From sequence record PZ452591.1: DNA of 64,000 bases; one strand, given 5' to 3'. Under the pieces are notes generated by a model. That model worked only from the letters and a program-made list of their open reading frames with translations, did not search any database and was not told the origin of the DNA. The number at the start of each line of letters is the position of its first letter. The stretch's first letter is position 1. Position numbers and translations under genes: made by a program. The DNA comes from a phage. Positions 16,108 to 62,963 of the stretch are shown piece by piece.

Positions 16108-16150
16108 ATTATTTTCCTCTTTAATCATCAGCAGTATTGCCGATAGTTGT

Positions 16151-16180
16151 ATAGTACCATAAAGCTTTATGCTTGTAAAC
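16151..16180 (-). promoter_or_regulatory. early promoter cassette (-35 GTTTAC, 18-bp spacer, extended -10 TGG-TACTAT)
   Basis: copy of the recurring motif GTGGTACTATACAACTATC with upstream A/T-rich tract. Confidence 0.5.
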
Positions 16181-16204
16181 AGTTTTGTGAAAAAATTTTT
16201 TGAA

Positions 16205-33051: not shown

Positions 33052-33092
33052 TTTCTAATCTCCGTAATTCTGTATCAGTAGTTGATAGTTGT

Positions 33093-33122
33093 ATAGTACC
33101 ACAGTATGCTTTGGTTGTAAAC
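33093..33122 (-). promoter_or_regulatory. early promoter cassette upstream of motA
   Basis: minus strand GTTTAC at 33117-33122, 18-bp spacer, extended -10 TGG-TACTAT at 33093-33101. Confidence 0.55.
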
Positions 33123-33146
33123 CGTTTTGTGAAAAAATTTTTAAAT

Positions 33147-36264: not shown

Positions 36265-36378
36265 TCACATAAATCCAAAGTAAGCGTTTAATACATCAAT
36301 CATTAAAACGATTGGGAATATACTCAAAACTATTAGTATTATAACTACATTCCATATAGCTTTAACAATCTTTTTCAT
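36265..36378 (-). CDS. small membrane protein, about 37 aa
   Basis: in-frame ATG at 36376-36378; the track ORF N-terminal extension reads through the promoter cassette. Confidence 0.35.
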   Translation of the reverse strand: MKKIVKAIWNVVIILIVLSIFPIVLMIDVLNAYFGFM

Positions 36379-36406
36379 TTTCTGTTCCTCCGTAGTTGAT
36401 AGTTGT

Positions 36407-36436
36407 ATAGTACCACAGAGGAACAGTCTTGTAAAC
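36407..36436 (-). promoter_or_regulatory. early promoter cassette
   Basis: GTTTAC at 36431-36436, 18-bp spacer, TGG-TACTAT; recurring motif. Confidence 0.5.
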
Positions 36437-36624
36437 AACTTTTTTTTTAAAAATATTCGTAATAAATGTGAATACCAACTACTACCGCTGAAACTTGCAC
36501 AACCCACCACGCACAAGCAATAAGTACAGAATTCAAAATTTTCATAATAACCTCATCACAAAAGTAAATGTTAAACAAATTACTGGAATACTAATTAACC
36601 AAACAAAACACCACCACAATGAAC

Positions 36625-36888
36625 TCATAGTTCAATCTCAACGATTTTCATTTCATTACTATTAATAGCCGCTTTAAGACTATCTGAAAGAATTACATTC
36701 CAGTGGTCATTCATATGACCATTAACTAAGCGTGTAATTTCTTCAGGAGTTGAAAAATAAGGCTGATCAGACTCCCAATGCGATAATCCTAAGCGAGTAT
36801 AAATCATGCCTTCATCATCGCTAGAATATTCAACTGACACAAACTCATCAGTTATTTTATGCTTAGCATAATAAAATTTAAATTTCAT
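36625..36888 (-). CDS. hypothetical protein, about 87 aa
   Basis: in-frame ATG at 36886-36888; track ORF extension crosses the promoter cassette. Confidence 0.5.
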   Translation of the reverse strand: MKFKFYYAKHKITDEFVSVEYSSDDEGMIYTRLGLSHWESDQPYFSTPEEITRLVNGHMNDHWNVILSDSLKAAINSNEMKIVEIEL

Positions 36889-36922
36889 TTTACTCTCCAA
36901 ATCCGTATCAGTTGATAGTTGT

Positions 36923-36952
36923 ATAGTACCACGGTCCTTGTGGTATGTAAAC
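36923..36952 (-). promoter_or_regulatory. early promoter cassette
   Basis: GTTTAC at 36947-36952, 18-bp spacer, TGG-TACTAT. Confidence 0.5.
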
Positions 36953-36968
36953 CGTTTTGTGAAATTTT

Positions 36969-37526
36969 TTAAATGGAAAGATACCATCCGTTGTAGTTGC
37001 TTTTTCTTACAACCTTACGAAGGTCTTCTCTGTCACCGATGAACTTCGGAGTGTACTGGATGACACCTGGATGAATTTCTTTAGTGTTGAATATAATTAT
37101 ACAGTCAGCGACTTGATGATTTAGAATAGGCCCTAGATTTATTCCAGAACCATATGGATACTCTCCGCTGCATCCTGTTGTTACAGAAATCCAACGTGAG
37201 TCAGTTTGATGTGTCTTAACTTCTACACGAAGCCCACAGTATTTTGGATGCGCTAATACATCCCATGCATATGTGTACGGATCATCGACATCTTCTTGGC
37301 CTTTATTGACATATCCGCTTAGCCAATCTGCCACAAAAAACTCTGCGTACACAGCGATACGGCATCTTTCGATAACTTCTGCTTTATCCTGGTTCGGGTT
37401 TTGTTTTAAAGAGTATCTTACTGTATCAGCAATTTTGACCTTCATTTCACTAGTCAAGTCACTGTTCGATAGGGTAAATGTCGGAATCTGAAATAGTCTC
37501 TGTAAACCCGGATTCGTTTTCTGCAT
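36969..37526 (-). CDS. denB: endonuclease IV DenB, 185 aa
   Basis: ATG at 37524-37526; size and position between ndd.x ORFs and rIIB. Confidence 0.85.
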   Translation of the reverse strand: MQKTNPGLQRLFQIPTFTLSNSDLTSEMKVKIADTVRYSLKQNPNQDKAEVIERCRIAVYAEFFVADWLSGYVNKGQEDVDDPYTYAWDVLAHPKYCGLRVEVKTHQTDSRWISVTTGCSGEYPYGSGINLGPILNHQVADCIIIFNTKEIHPGVIQYTPKFIGDREDLRKVVRKSNYNGWYLSI

Positions 37527-41231: not shown

Positions 41232-43049
41232 CTACTGGCTCATCCATTCTTTACGAAGGTCAGCATTATCTCCCATGAGCATTTCAAAAAGCTCTTTCCA
41301 GTTCTCAGGAAGTTTAACAACATCATATACTGGATTTTGAATCATCTCACGATATTCAGATTTTTCCAAAGAGCCAAGTCCTTTAATATAACGGATGCTA
41401 TGTTTAGGTAGAGCATCTTTAGCACTCTCATATTCAGCGACTGTATAAAACCATTCTTGTTTTTTACCAATCTGTGCGATGATTACAGGAGTTTTGACAA
41501 AGCGAATTCGTCCTTGCTCAAACAGTTCTGGCCAATTACTAAAAAATCCAAGCAGAGAAGGATAAATGCTTCCTAGACCATCATGGTCAGCATCAGTCAT
41601 AATAGCAATATTATGATAATTCAAGTTTTCAGCTTTTTCACCGAGAACTAATCCAGTGATTGCGCAAATATCAAATAGTTCTTTGTTTTTAAGCATATCT
41701 GCATAAGACATACCCCAGCTATTAAGAACTTTACCACGCAATGGATAACCACCGTGAAGTTCTTTATCACGAACATCAATAAGATATCCGATAGCAGAAT
41801 CACCCTCAGTCAAGAAAAGAGTAGTGTCAGCATCTTTACCACAAAGATTCGCTTTGATATGTTTATGAACCTTAGCTTTAGAAGCCTTTTTAGCTGCTTT
41901 AGTTTCTGCTGCTTTTTCTGCCGCCAATTTACGAGCCAAAGCAGCTTCAATAATCGGCATCAGAATTGCTTCATTATTCAAAATAGCACGTGAAATCTTT
42001 TTAGCATCAAGCTGAATATGACTACGGATTTCACCAAATGGAGAAGTCAAACGCTCTTTAGTCTGAGAATCAAATCGCATGTTTTTCATATCACGAACAA
42101 ACATAACGATAGTCAAACATTCTTTGACACGTGCTTTAGTCACATCAATTTTGAACTTACGTTTGATTTGTGGAATAAGGTCTTCACAAATATCATCCAT
42201 AACACAGTCAATGTGATGGCCACCATTCTTAGTATGAATGTTATTAACGTATGTTAATTGACGAAAACCATCCGGTGAACGACCAACTGCAATAGAACAA
42301 TTTTCTTGTTCTTGAACAATAGCATGCTCATCATATTGGCGTGCATATTTCTTAAAATTGCCCTGAACCTTTTTACCATTAAAGGTAAATTGAATATCAG
42401 GATAAACTACTGCAAGTGTCTGGAGACGGTCCAGTGTAATGTCAAGATAAACCTGAGACAGCTCATTAGTTTCAAATGACATAAAATCAGGAATGAAAGT
42501 AACACGAGTTCCTTTCCATTTTCCAGGAATAGTTTCCCATGATTTATTTTCCATGCCATTTGAACAACGAACTACAATATTATTTTGACCATCACCAGTT
42601 TCACCGACAAACATCACAGAAAAAATGTTTGTCAAACTAGAACCAACACCATTCATACCACCGGTGACACGTTCTTTATCATCACCAAAGTTACCACCTG
42701 CTTTTGGAATAGTCCATGCAGCAACAGGACCAGGAATTTCTTCACCGGTAGGTGTTTTGACCATCGCTTGTGGAATACCGCGACCGTTATCTTCAACTGT
42801 TACTTGATTGTTTTTAATAGTAACATTAATTTTATTTGCGAATTTAAACTTAGTACGAATACCTTCATCTACTGAGTTATCGATAATTTCATCAATAAGC
42901 TTAACAAGACCAGGTACATACTGAACACTTTCCCATTTACCAAACAGAAAGCGCTCATGCATTTCATTAGCAGAAGAGCCGATGTACATGCCACTGCGCT
43001 TTTTGATATGTTCAATATCGCTCAGAATTTTAATTTCATTCTTAATCAT
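41232..43049 (-). CDS. 39: topoisomerase II large (ATPase) subunit, contiguous 605 aa (equivalent to T4 gp39 plus gp60)
   Basis: ATG at 43047-43049; one uninterrupted ORF spanning GHKL ATPase and Toprim regions. Confidence 0.9.
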   Translation of the reverse strand: MIKNEIKILSDIEHIKKRSGMYIGSSANEMHERFLFGKWESVQYVPGLVKLIDEIIDNSVDEGIRTKFKFANKINVTIKNNQVTVEDNGRGIPQAMVKTPTGEEIPGPVAAWTIPKAGGNFGDDKERVTGGMNGVGSSLTNIFSVMFVGETGDGQNNIVVRCSNGMENKSWETIPGKWKGTRVTFIPDFMSFETNELSQVYLDITLDRLQTLAVVYPDIQFTFNGKKVQGNFKKYARQYDEHAIVQEQENCSIAVGRSPDGFRQLTYVNNIHTKNGGHHIDCVMDDICEDLIPQIKRKFKIDVTKARVKECLTIVMFVRDMKNMRFDSQTKERLTSPFGEIRSHIQLDAKKISRAILNNEAILMPIIEAALARKLAAEKAAETKAAKKASKAKVHKHIKANLCGKDADTTLFLTEGDSAIGYLIDVRDKELHGGYPLRGKVLNSWGMSYADMLKNKELFDICAITGLVLGEKAENLNYHNIAIMTDADHDGLGSIYPSLLGFFSNWPELFEQGRIRFVKTPVIIAQIGKKQEWFYTVAEYESAKDALPKHSIRYIKGLGSLEKSEYREMIQNPVYDVVKLPENWKELFEMLMGDNADLRKEWMSQ

Positions 43050-43104
43050 CACTTATCCTCGTTTGGTTTCGGGAATATTATACTCCGGTAATCATAAAGC
43101 TAAA

Positions 43105-54477: not shown

Positions 54478-54502
54478 ATTATACAATAAATATATAAAGC
54501 AA
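54478..54502 (-). promoter_or_regulatory. MotA-dependent middle promoter (MotA box TTGCTTTA, 11 nt, -10 TATAAT)
   Basis: minus strand ...ATTGCTTTATATATTTATTGTATAATTAA... about 35-60 nt upstream of the gene 56 ATG. Confidence 0.5.
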
Positions 54503-54514
54503 TAAGGAGGACAT

Positions 54515-58825: not shown

Positions 58826-59170
58826 TTAAAAGAATTTAAATTTTTTCTTTGACCTTTTATTAAATGCATCTTGTAGTTGCATTGTAATACATTTTTCTAC
58901 ATGAGGAGCTAACTCAGCTTTTCTTTCTTGGTCAAGAACAGCAAAGTCCATTACAACCTTTCCATCAACCCAATCCAGTTTTGTTACATACACTATATGT
59001 GTAGAACCATCTTCTAGTTTAATGACAATCTCCTGGATAACATTTTCCATAGCGGATTTAATTATCTTAAGAGACTCATTAAAAAGACGTTCTTTTCTTT
59101 CTTCTTCCCCCTCCGAAGAGGGGGATTCATCGATAATTTCTAGATCTAAATCTAAATCATCTTTATTCAT
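58826..59170 (-). CDS. 40: gp40 head-assembly accessory protein, 114 aa
   Basis: in-frame ATG at 59168-59170; overlaps uvsX stop by 8 nt; track ORF starts at upstream GTG. Confidence 0.7.
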   Translation of the reverse strand: MNKDDLDLDLEIIDESPSSEGEEERKERLFNESLKIIKSAMENVIQEIVIKLEDGSTHIVYVTKLDWVDGKVVMDFAVLDQERKAELAPHVEKCITMQLQDAFNKRSKKKFKFF

Positions 59171-60344
59171 TAAATTCTTCCATATCACTTAACTGTTCAA
59201 GGTCAGTTTCTAAATCAGCTGCTGATTTACTTTTACTTTCTGGAGATTTAAATTTTTCAACCTTTGAGTTAATCAATTCATCAACTTCAGCTTCAACAAT
59301 TTCATTACTATCAATAGCACCTAACTGATAAGCACGTTTAATAGCATCTCGGAATGGTTGATGCTTAAATAAAGGACCCCAGAATGTAGTGCAGTTAGTA
59401 TCTTTTGCACGCCAAGATTTTTCTTCGCGAATCATCTCGCCGGTTTCTTCATCAAGAAATTCACGAGCATACCAGCCATTTTTAGGTTTTACTACAAATC
59501 CTAATTCTAGAGCCATATCTAACAATCCAGAATAAGGATCGATACCACCGTCAAATTTAACATCAATAAAGAATTTACTTTTTTCTTTAACGGTACGAGA
59601 TTTTTCTACATTTAGAACAAATTGATACCCCTGAAGATCAGAACCATCTTTAATCTGACGCTTACCAATAATGAATACAGTATCAGCTGAATACATTACG
59701 CCTGTACCACCTGTCATCACGGTTTTACTAAACATTTCAATGGTTTCAATTGTATGGTTAACCGCAACACATGGAATATTTTTAATGCTAAAATAAGGAG
59801 TAACAATACGGAATAATGACTTCAGTGATTTAGCACGAGTCATATCTGCCACAGATTTTTCATTCAAGGCATCTTCCGTTTCTTTCTTGGAAGCCATATT
59901 ACCAATTGAGTCGATGAATACAATAACCTTTTCACCACGCTCAATAGCTTCAAGCTGATTCACCATATCAATTTTCAGTTGTTCAACTGACTGGATTGGT
60001 GTATGAATTACTCGTTCCGGGTCAACTCCCATGGATCGCAAATAAGCTGGAGTAATACCAAATTCGCTATCATAGAATAGACAAACCGCGTCAGGATATT
60101 TGTTTAAATATGCCGCAACCATAGTCAAAGACATATTTGATTTAAAGTGTTTAGAAGGACCTGCAAAAATGGTTAAACCAGACTGCATACCGCCATCAAT
60201 CGCGCCGGAAATAGCGATATTAAGCATTGGAATTTTTGTACGGATTACATCCTTTTCATTAAAGAATTTAGATGTAGTCAGTTCAGCAGTCATTTTAGAA
60301 GTGGAAGCTTTAATCAAACGGGATTTTAAATCTGCAATAGACAT
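59163..60344 (-). CDS. uvsX: UvsX recombinase (RecA homolog), 393 aa
   Basis: ATG at 60342-60344; Walker A GPSKHFKS; matches recalled T4 UvsX. Confidence 0.93.
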   Translation of the reverse strand: MSIADLKSRLIKASTSKMTAELTTSKFFNEKDVIRTKIPMLNIAISGAIDGGMQSGLTIFAGPSKHFKSNMSLTMVAAYLNKYPDAVCLFYDSEFGITPAYLRSMGVDPERVIHTPIQSVEQLKIDMVNQLEAIERGEKVIVFIDSIGNMASKKETEDALNEKSVADMTRAKSLKSLFRIVTPYFSIKNIPCVAVNHTIETIEMFSKTVMTGGTGVMYSADTVFIIGKRQIKDGSDLQGYQFVLNVEKSRTVKEKSKFFIDVKFDGGIDPYSGLLDMALELGFVVKPKNGWYAREFLDEETGEMIREEKSWRAKDTNCTTFWGPLFKHQPFRDAIKRAYQLGAIDSNEIVEAEVDELINSKVEKFKSPESKSKSAADLETDLEQLSDMEEFNE

Positions 60345-60421: not shown

Positions 60422-61264
60422 TTAATCAACTGCTATTGGATGAATAGCATTAAACTTATGAAATGCTTCTGATTTTTCTTTACGCGAAACGCACATGCGA
60501 AGAACCTTTAGTGGTTCATCTTCTTCACCCAACGATTTTCGTTTTTCAATATTCGATGTTTTCCAACGAGCTTGCTCTGGAAACTCTCTATTGATTTGCT
60601 CAAGCGCTCTATTATGTTTAGAATTACTACGAATTGAACTACACCCACCAGGAGCGTGTGATTTTCCAGATACAACTAGATATTTGAACAAGGCCAAATG
60701 CGGATAACCTTGATTAATTAAATTGAGAAATGCATACATATCTTCACATAAATCAATTTTTCCATACCCAATTTGTTCTGTCGTAAGTTTTCCGAGGTCA
60801 TACCATGTATTCGTGAATCCATATGAGTTTTCACGATAATTACCCCAAGATGAAGTAATTTTAAAAATTGGTAGACGAGCATGACCGTGATAATACCCGC
60901 AATCCATAGCATCCTCAACGTATTGAATTAATTCATAGAACTGTTCACGAGTTAATTGATTAATTTTATCTACGCGCCGTTTATCGTCTCTCTTTCGTAT
61001 TGAACTCATACGAATAGTAGTATCATCGTCAATCATCCAGATTCGTTGACCTGCATACATATCAGTAATTGCTTTACGAGTACCGGCAATTCCATTAACA
61101 TCATCAGGAATAGTTACAATTTTAGCTCTAGACCCATAAGCATCATAATAAGCTTTTTCTTCGTGTTCACGTACTACAATATGTGGTTCATAATCAGTCG
61201 GAAACATATCAAGGGCAGAAACTGCCCCTACACGTTGATAGCTTGGAATTACGAATTGAATCAT
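60422..61264 (-). CDS. GT-A-fold glycosyltransferase (DxD motif), about 280 aa, at the uvsX-42 locus; candidate DNA hydroxymethylcytosine glucosyltransferase
   Basis: in-frame ATG at 61262-61264 overlapping gene 42 stop as ATGA; WMIDDDTT motif; occupies the T4 beta-gt position but is shorter. Confidence 0.6.
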   Translation of the reverse strand: MIQFVIPSYQRVGAVSALDMFPTDYEPHIVVREHEEKAYYDAYGSRAKIVTIPDDVNGIAGTRKAITDMYAGQRIWMIDDDTTIRMSSIRKRDDKRRVDKINQLTREQFYELIQYVEDAMDCGYYHGHARLPIFKITSSWGNYRENSYGFTNTWYDLGKLTTEQIGYGKIDLCEDMYAFLNLINQGYPHLALFKYLVVSGKSHAPGGCSSIRSNSKHNRALEQINREFPEQARWKTSNIEKRKSLGEEDEPLKVLRMCVSRKEKSEAFHKFNAIHPIAVD

Positions 61265-62001
61265 TTCCACTCACCGTTATAATCTTTTTTCACAATATGA
61301 GTTTCGCCAGTATTCCACCAATGATCAACCAAGTAAAAATGACGAGAATATACATGAAGACTTCCAACATTCCATATAATAGAACCTGCTTTATACTGAC
61401 GAGTTGAATCGCCTGCATTCAAATCAGATACTAATTTATCTAATACGTATTTTTGCCATGCATAATCATTACGGAATCCGAAGACCACGTCATTTGAGCG
61501 CATGTTAACAACCGCATTGATTTTCTTGTCACGAATTAAGTATTGTACTGTATTCGTACACATGAAATCTGACATACCATCTTTATTGTAGTCAAATTGC
61601 ATAGATGGACGAGTATAAATCATGATACCACGTCGAGAATCAGGATTTTGACCAAGTTCAGCTAAACACATATCATACTGGGCATAGTTATCTTCTGACC
61701 AGATAGCCCAACCATAATTCGAGTTAATTTCACCTTTAGAAGATGCTACTTGTTGCCAAATCTTCGGTGTTTCACCCGGAATATCTTTAACGAACAAGCT
61801 CTTAGATTTATACCATTCAAGTTCACGCTGAATGTATTCATCATTAAGAGCGCCAAAAATAAACGGTTCATCTGCTACAAATGATGCGCCAATAATTTCA
61901 ATAGTTTTAACGCCAGTTTTATCAACTACGAAATCTTTTTCCTTTAATGCAAGCCCCAAATGAAGACGGATTTCTTCAACTGTCATAGAGTCACTAATCA
62001 T
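61261..62001 (-). CDS. 42: dCMP hydroxymethylase gp42, 246 aa
   Basis: ATG at 61999-62001; thymidylate-synthase-like fold; matches recalled T4 gp42. Confidence 0.93.
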   Translation of the reverse strand: MISDSMTVEEIRLHLGLALKEKDFVVDKTGVKTIEIIGASFVADEPFIFGALNDEYIQRELEWYKSKSLFVKDIPGETPKIWQQVASSKGEINSNYGWAIWSEDNYAQYDMCLAELGQNPDSRRGIMIYTRPSMQFDYNKDGMSDFMCTNTVQYLIRDKKINAVVNMRSNDVVFGFRNDYAWQKYVLDKLVSDLNAGDSTRQYKAGSIIWNVGSLHVYSRHFYLVDHWWNTGETHIVKKDYNGEWK

Positions 62002-62154
62002 TTAAACCTCAATTGATACATTCATATTTAACTTGTAACAGTAATAAACTCCAACCTAAAACAATAGTTGGAATCATAAGAGGAACCGTTACACTATAGT
62101 ATATACTTATTATAACCATCAAGATTAAAAGCAACACTGCTATAATTTTGCTTT

Positions 62155-62406
62155 TCATTCCTTCTCTCTGATGATAATTACCTGATTTGGCTGCGCAGAC
62201 TTTTTAGTTTCACCCGCAATTGACCAAATAAATGTAATAAACCAACCAATAATTGACCAGTTAAACAGCAAAGATGTGAAAAAGATTCCTACTGTCGATT
62301 TTGACCCACGCATCAAGGCAATAAACCATGGAAGCATGTATATAATAATAGCCAACACACCTGAAACTAAAACCATAAAAATTGAACCTGCTACTAAAGT
62401 TTCCAT
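62155..62406 (-). CDS. imm: Imm superinfection immunity protein, 83 aa
   Basis: ATG at 62404-62406; two transmembrane helices; matches recalled T4 Imm. Confidence 0.85.
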   Translation of the reverse strand: METLVAGSIFMVLVSGVLAIIIYMLPWFIALMRGSKSTVGIFFTSLLFNWSIIGWFITFIWSIAGETKKSAQPNQVIIIREKE

Positions 62407-62413
62407 GTTTTCC

Positions 62414-62794
62414 TCACTTAGTCAAATTTTTTACACATGAATTATAAGAATTCACTACATACTCCATCGGAGCATTTTTACCTGTACGCCATTGGTAATT
62501 ATTAGCCCAATTTGCCCAAAGTTCAGCGCAGTAGTTTTCAATTTTTTCTTCGCGTGTAATTACATCAGAATTACGATATGCTTGAGCAGATTCATCTGGA
62601 CGAATAGCCTCGTCAAAATTCGCCTGCATTTGTTCTACTGTCTGTTTTGGAGCTTCTTTATAACACTTGACGTTAGGATTATAAAATTTGCTTGAACAGT
62701 TTACAATTTTTCCTACATCAGAATGATTTACTACCGGTCCTTGAGCTACACAACCAGTAAGACCTAATGCAATAACCAAAATAGCGATTTTCAT
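62414..62794 (-). CDS. putative lipoprotein, about 126 aa, adjacent to imm
   Basis: in-frame ATG at 62792-62794 with GGAG Shine-Dalgarno; lipobox LTGC (MKIAILVIALGLTGC...); track ORF starts at upstream TTG. Confidence 0.55.
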   Translation of the reverse strand: MKIAILVIALGLTGCVAQGPVVNHSDVGKIVNCSSKFYNPNVKCYKEAPKQTVEQMQANFDEAIRPDESAQAYRNSDVITREEKIENYCAELWANWANNYQWRTGKNAPMEYVVNSYNSCVKNLTK

Positions 62795-62828
62795 TTCATT
62801 CTCCAAATCCGTATCAGTTGATAGTTAT

Positions 62829-62858
62829 ATAGTACCATGGAAGAACAGTCTTGTAAAC
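62829..62858 (-). promoter_or_regulatory. early promoter cassette
   Basis: GTTTAC at 62853-62858, 18-bp spacer, TGG-TACTAT at 62829-62837. Confidence 0.5.
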
Positions 62859-62947
62859 AGTTTTGTGAAAAAAATTTTTAATGAATCCAAAAGGTCCAGA
62901 ATCATCCGTTTTTCATAAGTATAGATTTATATTACTTGTATGAAAAG

Positions 62948-62963
62948 GGGACCCGAAGGTCCC
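62948..62963 (-). terminator. intrinsic terminator after gene 43, GGGACC-UUCG-GGUCCC
   Basis: UUCG tetraloop hairpin with flanking A/U runs, 14 nt past the gene 43 stop. Confidence 0.6.

Follow-up and report, generated by a model that had tools for sequence, protein, structure and literature searches.

We analysed a 64,000-nucleotide stretch of phage DNA (sequence record PZ452591.1; hereafter the window), a T-even (Tequatrovirus) segment that runs from the tail-fibre/rII side to the start of gene 43. Neither an Rfam nor a tRNA scan across the window as a whole gave a hit. The gene studied here, ba-gt (also ggt or TAGT), lies between gene 42 and uvsX, and the following features were assigned at this locus:

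60422..61264, minus strand: ba-gt coding sequence, 280 aa plus stop, β-glucosyl-HMC-α-glucosyltransferase; from the open reading frame list and 100% protein identity to PST, Geo and G3F10.
61261..62001, minus strand: gene 42, dCMP hydroxymethylase, upstream neighbour of ba-gt; from the open reading frame list and synteny with PST and T4.
59163..60344, minus strand: uvsX recombinase, downstream neighbour of ba-gt after a 77-nt spacer.
61261..61264, minus strand: ATGA overlap of the ba-gt ATG (61264-61262) with the gene 42 TGA (61263-61261); read from the sequence.
61267..61275, minus strand: Shine-Dalgarno-like GGTGAGTGG, upstream of the ba-gt ATG and within the end of gene 42; read from the sequence.
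61016..61039, minus strand: WMIDDDTT, residues 76-83, which holds D79-D80-D81.
61022..61030, minus strand: D79-D80-D81, a DxD-type motif (codons GAC GAT GAT), invariant in the ten-sequence alignment described below.
60740..60745, minus strand: E174-D175 ('CED'), with D175 invariant and E174 nearly invariant in the same alignment.
60629..60652, minus strand: PGGCSSIR, residues 205-212, conserved and located in a low-confidence loop of the structural model.
62829..62857, minus strand: T4-early-type promoter (TTTACA, 17-nt spacer, TG-extended TACTAT); from a promoter/terminator scan.
62948-62963: hairpin after gene 43, preceding this promoter; from the same scan.

The program listed the ba-gt reading frame as 60422..61270 (minus strand), with a GTG start and 282 aa. 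An in-frame ATG at 61264 gives a 280-aa product with the N-terminus MIQFVIPSYQR, as in all homologues of the ten-sequence alignment. Because every homologue begins with MIQF and the Shine-Dalgarno-like GGTGAG, 5-10 nt upstream, is spaced for the ATG, we rejected the GTG at 61270 in its favour, which agrees with the gene of about 280 aa that the original prediction had described. Across the junction with gene 42 the minus strand reads ...GGTGAGTGGAAATGATTCAA... (in a longer reading, GGTGAGTGGAAATGATTC), so that the ATGA overlap with the gene 42 stop, likewise predicted, is directly visible; it is also annotated in PST, T2, Geo, EL, BGP and EH2. The Shine-Dalgarno-like stretch is a putative ribosome-binding site of ba-gt, and the overlap probably couples ba-gt translation to that of gene 42. 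Just past the junction, within ba-gt codons 12-18, the terminator scan flagged a 9-bp GC-rich hairpin (TAGGGGCAGTTTCTGCCCTTG, 61210-61230, minus strand). We treated this hairpin of the 5′ coding region as incidental; an influence on translational coupling is possible.

The reading frame is intact from ATG to stop. Given the base composition of the window, 280 codons would run free of stops by chance with a probability of about 3e-10. The gene differs from that of PST at 5 nucleotides and from that of Geo at 15, none of which changes an amino acid, and the codon differences from T2 comprise 31 synonymous and 9 non-synonymous changes. The low stop-free probability and the mostly synonymous differences together indicate a real gene under purifying selection.

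Comparison of the locus with other T-even phages revealed the same gene order in PST, T2, T6 and Geo, whereas T4 carries b-gt (1056 nt, 351 aa) and segA between gene 42 and uvsX. The T4 arrangement, with a 23-nt spacer from gene 42 to b-gt followed by the segA homing-endonuclease gene, has no counterpart in the window, which lacks both b-gt and segA. The synteny with PST and T4 thus upholds the earlier statement that the 351-aa β-gt of T4 is replaced at this position. A tblastn search of the 64-kb window for α-gt, β-gt and segA, with T4 SegA included, found none of them. In PST, T6 and Geo, α-gt lies about 11-13 kb beyond gene 42; it is absent from the window because the window ends inside gene 43, and its presence in this phage is therefore inferred from these relatives.

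The early promoter at 62829..62857 heads the gene string imm.1, imm, a 49-aa open reading frame, gene 42 and ba-gt. The hairpin after gene 43 and the placement of this promoter upstream of imm.1 make early co-expression of gene 42 and ba-gt likely, probably within one early transcription unit. The promoter belongs to a conserved early-promoter repeat family. Five conserved elements of about 100 nt lie on the minus strand of the window (62781-62885, 36363-36467, 36880-36972, 33053-33144 and 16142-16200), laid out as an A/T-rich upstream part, GTTTAC, a spacer, TGGTACTATACAAC and a conserved leader, TATCAACTGATACGGATTTGGAGA, mostly followed by ATG; from their sequence they resemble consensus T4 early promoters whose transcribed leader is unusually well conserved. 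The 49-aa open reading frame (62009-62158, minus strand) is hydrophobic, lies between imm and gene 42 with a 4-nt overlap with imm, and carries the names ORF042 (hypothetical) in PST and GEO_049 in Geo; the T4 record has an imm-to-gene 42 spacer of about 150 nt with no annotated gene. Elsewhere in the window, a 606-aa open reading frame (41232-43052, minus strand) occupies the position of the gene that relatives annotate as the DNA topoisomerase II large subunit. In T4 the large subunit is split between gene 39 and gene 60, and gene 60 contains a translational bypass; the 606-aa frame appears to be one fused gene, like that of T6-type phages.

A megablast search with a 1.1-kb region matched 527 phage records, with Yersinia phage PST as the best match (99.5%), and the majority annotation among the matching records was beta-glucosyl-HMC-alpha-glucosyltransferase. 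By tblastn, the ba-gt protein matched 689 phage records, and 52 phage records carry a protein at least 99% identical to it. Identity is 100% with the proteins of Yersinia phage PST, vB_EcoM-G3F10 and Escherichia phages vB_Eco_Geo, EL and BGP (the last three from the Durham collection), and DNA identity to ba-gt of the PST, Geo, EL and BGP group is 98.6-99.5%. In PST, Geo, EL and BGP the protein carries the annotation beta-glucosyl-HMC-alpha-glucosyl-transferase. The T2 enzyme (LC348380) is 96.8% identical over 280 aa (9 of 280 residues differ) and the T6 enzyme (MH550421) about 96% (11 residue differences), followed by homologues in CC31 and in Klebsiella, Enterobacter and Salmonella T4-like phages at about 64-66% and in Serratia phages at about 48%. 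Among the tblastn matches, ba-gt homologues adjoin gene 42 wherever the records annotate gene 42.

Family searches were consistent with these matches. Pfam PF20691 (TAGT, TET-associated glycosyltransferase) scored 39.1 bits, above its gathering score of 27.5 bits, with residues 3-207 on profile positions 2-205 of 205, and PHROG 842 (βα-GT) matched residues 1-275 with E=4e-88; an NCBIfam search with the protein returned no family match. Family score, full-length identity and synteny between gene 42 and uvsX all mark the protein as an orthologue of the T2/T6 βα-GT, which it resembles in length (280 aa), locus, ATGA overlap, DDD motif, family and fold class. That T2 and T6 have an HMC-glucose-modifying enzyme instead of β-gt is a textbook fact; the original prediction had invoked it for this locus, and the T2 identity and PHROG 842 match show that the window gene encodes this enzyme. 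Judged by its sequence, the gene is an intact T2/T6-type βα-GT, an enzyme that adds a second glucose to glucosylated 5hmC.

By contrast, no similarity to T4 β-gt was detectable in the protein. The best BLASTP match (E=4.1) extends over 35 residues and is no full-length alignment, the Pfam search gave no match to PF09198, the T4 β-gt family, and the fold matches of the structural model are GT-A. On these grounds a divergent T4 β-gt was rejected, and ba-gt falls outside that family (PF09198, GT-B) in sequence and in fold. T4 β-gt (CAZy GT63/GT72-type) shares with the window enzyme its genomic slot, UDP-glucose-dependent glucosylation of 5hmC DNA and a β linkage; it differs in length (351 vs 280 aa), in fold (GT-B vs GT-A), in the lack of sequence similarity and in its acceptor, which is bare 5hmC for T4 β-gt and α-glucosyl-5hmC for the window-type enzyme. 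The T6 TAGT has been described as GT-A and T4 β-gt as GT-B (PMC13216743), and a 2026 NAR paper had already reported that T6 TAGT has the GT-A fold and takes the place of β-GT.

We built an AlphaFold2 model from an alignment of ten sequences that included homologues down to 31% identity. The model was of medium confidence (mean pLDDT 69, pTM 0.71), with a confident N-terminal half and disordered loops at 126-151 and 194-211 (pLDDT <50 for residues 194-211). It matches GT-A fold nucleotide-sugar transferases, showing a single Rossmann-like nucleotide-diphospho-sugar transferase domain in which the central β-strand ends at an acidic motif of the DxD type. The modelled fold and the PF20691 match thus agree with the GT-A glycosyltransferase originally proposed, as opposed to a fold unrelated to nucleotide-sugar transferases, and ba-gt is, according to the model, a GT-A fold enzyme. 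A search of solved structures with the single sequence yielded chance matches only (E>1), a profile search yielded one weak GT2 match (E=0.24), and neither search found a solved structure of any TAGT.

The DxD-type motif named in the original prediction, D79-D80-D81 within WMIDDDTT, lies just after strand 74-77 of the model and is invariant across the homologues of the alignment; in the weak profile match it aligns to the DDD of the GT2 β-1,3-glucosyltransferase AvpGT (9jma). This motif presumably binds the metal and the UDP-sugar. E174-D175, which resembles the ED/TED motif known from GT2 enzymes, is a candidate for the catalytic base of an inverting GT-A enzyme. Within PGGCSSIR, residues G206, G207, S209 and R212 are invariant, suggesting a possible acceptor or DNA-contact loop. 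The N-terminal IPSY.R strand is also invariant, and every family-invariant residue is present in the window protein. Relative to the inverting GT-A enzymes of GT2 (TarP, 6h1j; AvpGT, 9jma; RmlT, 8bz4; BcsA), identity is 7-16% with a best sequence E of 0.24. The acceptor of ba-gt is a sugar on DNA, while those of the GT2 enzymes are lipid, polysaccharide or teichoic acid, and for the C-terminal half of ba-gt with its PGGCSSIR loop no GT2 counterpart could be assigned.

The chemistry of ba-gt and its effect on host defences are taken from published work. T6 TAGT adds glucose onto α-glucosyl-5hmC (PMC13216743), and a T6 Δba-gt phage has α-glucosyl-hmC only, having lost the gentiobiosyl modification (PMC11078745). 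In T2 and T6, which have α-GT and no β-GT, gentiobiosyl-5hmC accounts for about 5% and about 72% of 5hmC, respectively (PMC13216743; PMC6024577; bioRxiv 10.64898/2026.02.25.707755). HPLC/MS of Geo, EL and BGP DNA gave 5hmdC, α-glucosyl and α-gentiobiosyl forms at about 1:2:2, with no β-glucosyl form (PMC13390438). Since the proteins of these three phages are identical to that of the window, the mass spectrometry of DNA nucleosides proposed earlier as a check has already been done on an identical protein. The T6 Δba-gt phage and its DNA are more sensitive to the Brig1 DNA glycosylase (PMC11078745), and T6 Δg-gt DNA is a substrate of the BapA deglucosylase, which cannot deglucosylate gentiobiosyl-5hmC (bioRxiv 10.64898/2026.02.25.707755); GmrSD still targets gentiobiosyl DNA (PMC13216743). 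The suggestion that this gene influences modification-dependent defences is thereby supported for Brig1 and BapA, and for CRISPR we found no documentation in the literature of an effect of the gentiobiosyl form.

From these data we propose that ba-gt acts as a T2/T6-orthologous βα-GT, a reading to which, taken whole with its early expression, gentiobiosyl-5hmC product and 1:2:2 pattern, we assign a probability of about 0.93. Gene 42 would supply 5-hydroxymethyl-dCMP for incorporation into phage DNA, and an α-glucosyltransferase encoded outside the window would place the first glucose onto 5hmC. The βα-GT, expressed early from the promoter upstream of imm.1 and probably coupled to gene 42 via the ATGA, would then use UDP-glucose to attach a second glucose by a β-1,6 bond to the α-glucosyl-5hmC of duplex DNA, yielding gentiobiosyl-5hmC. 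The mechanism is probably inverting (UDP-α-Glc to a β linkage). Because the protein is identical to the Geo, EL and BGP enzymes, virion DNA would be expected to hold 5hmC, α-glucosyl-5hmC and gentiobiosyl-5hmC at about 1:2:2, without β-glucosyl-5hmC; as near-identical enzymes go with different extents (T2 5%, Geo about 40%, T6 72%), this ratio may fail if other loci set the level, and the window phage is unlike Geo in further respects, such as the missing dam region described below. The second glucose would hide α-glucosyl-5hmC from defences that recognise a base with one glucose, the glycosylase Brig1 and the deglucosylase BapA among them, and would give no protection against GmrSD-family type IV enzymes.

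The ba-gt product might instead be a primary DNA glycosyltransferase that acts on bare 5hmC, replacing β-gt in function rather than extending α-glucosyl-5hmC. It fills the exact slot of β-gt beside gene 42, solitary TAGT homologues occur in 288 of 753 phage genomes without α-GT and β-GT (PMC13216743), and some family members may use a different acceptor. However, the solitary TAGTs are distant homologues, and at 96-100% identity the window protein matches enzymes whose phages have α-gt as well. Moreover, the deletion in T6 leaves α-glucosylation in place and removes the second glucose only (PMC11078745), and Geo, EL and BGP, whose protein is identical, showed no β-glucosyl-5hmC (PMC13390438). 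We therefore consider a primary transferase very improbable.

Both public T6 genome records carry a lesion in ba-gt, a different one each, whereas the window gene is intact. In MH550421, a TAG stands at codon 10 (window equivalent 61235-61237), and the coding sequence is annotated as 261 aa from M20. In AP018814/NC_054907, one Asp of the DDD is missing (WMIDDTT) at the GAT-GAT repeat (window equivalent 61022-61030); judging from record numbering, the RefSeq protein derived from this record appears to be the TAGT reference of PMC13216743. As T6 is the textbook phage with 72% gentiobiosylation, these lesions may have arisen by mutation in the stocks or by error in sequencing, or may be variants that are tolerated.

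Lesions of this kind, the amber codon 10 and the missing Asp, arise in laboratory stocks, and the T2 gene is intact yet only about 5% of T2 5hmC is gentiobiosylated; both points could suggest that ba-gt is inactive or hypomorphic here, an accessory gene that is dispensable or in decay, and that the DNA bears α-glucosyl-5hmC only. Against this, the window frame retains all family-invariant residues, its differences from PST and Geo are exclusively synonymous, and the identical protein occurs in three phages with about 40% gentiobiosyl-5hmC by mass spectrometry (PMC13390438), so that we hold an inactive gene to be just as improbable as a primary transferase. Formation of a novel disaccharide by transfer of a non-glucose sugar, such as arabinose or an N-acetylhexosamine, is the least probable of all, for although GT-A phage transferases vary in donor and T4-like Mosigvirus phages use arabinose, the arabinosylating phages have different genes and a different precursor, and the identical protein in Geo, EL and BGP goes with the β(1→6) diglucoside gentiobiose (PMC13390438).

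Under the preferred βα-GT reading, the extent of the second glucosylation can be set beside the alleles of the enzyme. The T2, T6 and EH2 alleles differ from that of the window, PST, Geo, EL and BGP at seven residues:

Window-type allele (window, PST, Geo, EL, BGP): V50, I89, K95, R97, I101, S202, H203; about 40% gentiobiosyl of the modified-cytosine species (1:2:2).
EH2/T6-type allele (EH2, T6): I50, M89, R95, C97, V101, A202, Q203; gentiobiosyl about two-thirds in EH2 (about 67%) and 72% in T6.
T6 allele: N40, G55 and H106 in addition to the EH2 type.
T2-type allele (T2): EH2-type residues plus H11 and S251; gentiobiosyl about 5%.

Six of the seven window-allele changes fall in two poorly ordered loops of the model (82-105 and 194-211), beside the DxD motif and PGGCSSIR. 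The seven substitutions themselves may set the intermediate level of the second glucose (about 40%, vs about 67-72% in EH2 and T6 and about 5% in T2), which we regard as a tentative and rather doubtful proposal. At the level of alleles the correlation is perfect, but the sample is small, comprising three phages vs one phage plus T6, and Geo, EL and BGP, which are closely related, are set apart from the other group by further loci too, such as dam; the correlation is thus a lead rather than a result.

The genome around ba-gt is mosaic, and its 24-kb flank reaches no more than about 96-97% identity with any deposited phage. At about 54483-54504, where genes 56 and 61 adjoin, the window lacks a segment of about 1.45 kb that in Geo lies between these two genes and encodes the DNA adenine methyltransferase (dam) and the 186-aa hypothetical protein GEO_034.

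In summary, ba-gt of the window is an already known, intact and ordinary gene that has been published in detail for T2, T6 and the Durham phages, and the window adds one more copy of a common allele. The one minor addition is the assignment of the window allele to the Geo type, which coincides with an intermediate modification pattern. If the tentative link between allele and pattern is true, natural variation of βα-GT in two flexible loops would adjust the proportions of the hypermodified bases in the DNA, and with them the defence-evasion profile. In a T-even phage, ba-gt decides between mono- and diglucosylated 5hmC, thereby changing sensitivity to Brig1 and BapA without changing sensitivity to GmrSD/BrxU-type restriction, and the status of this gene is consequently useful for host-range prediction and for the choice of therapeutic phages.
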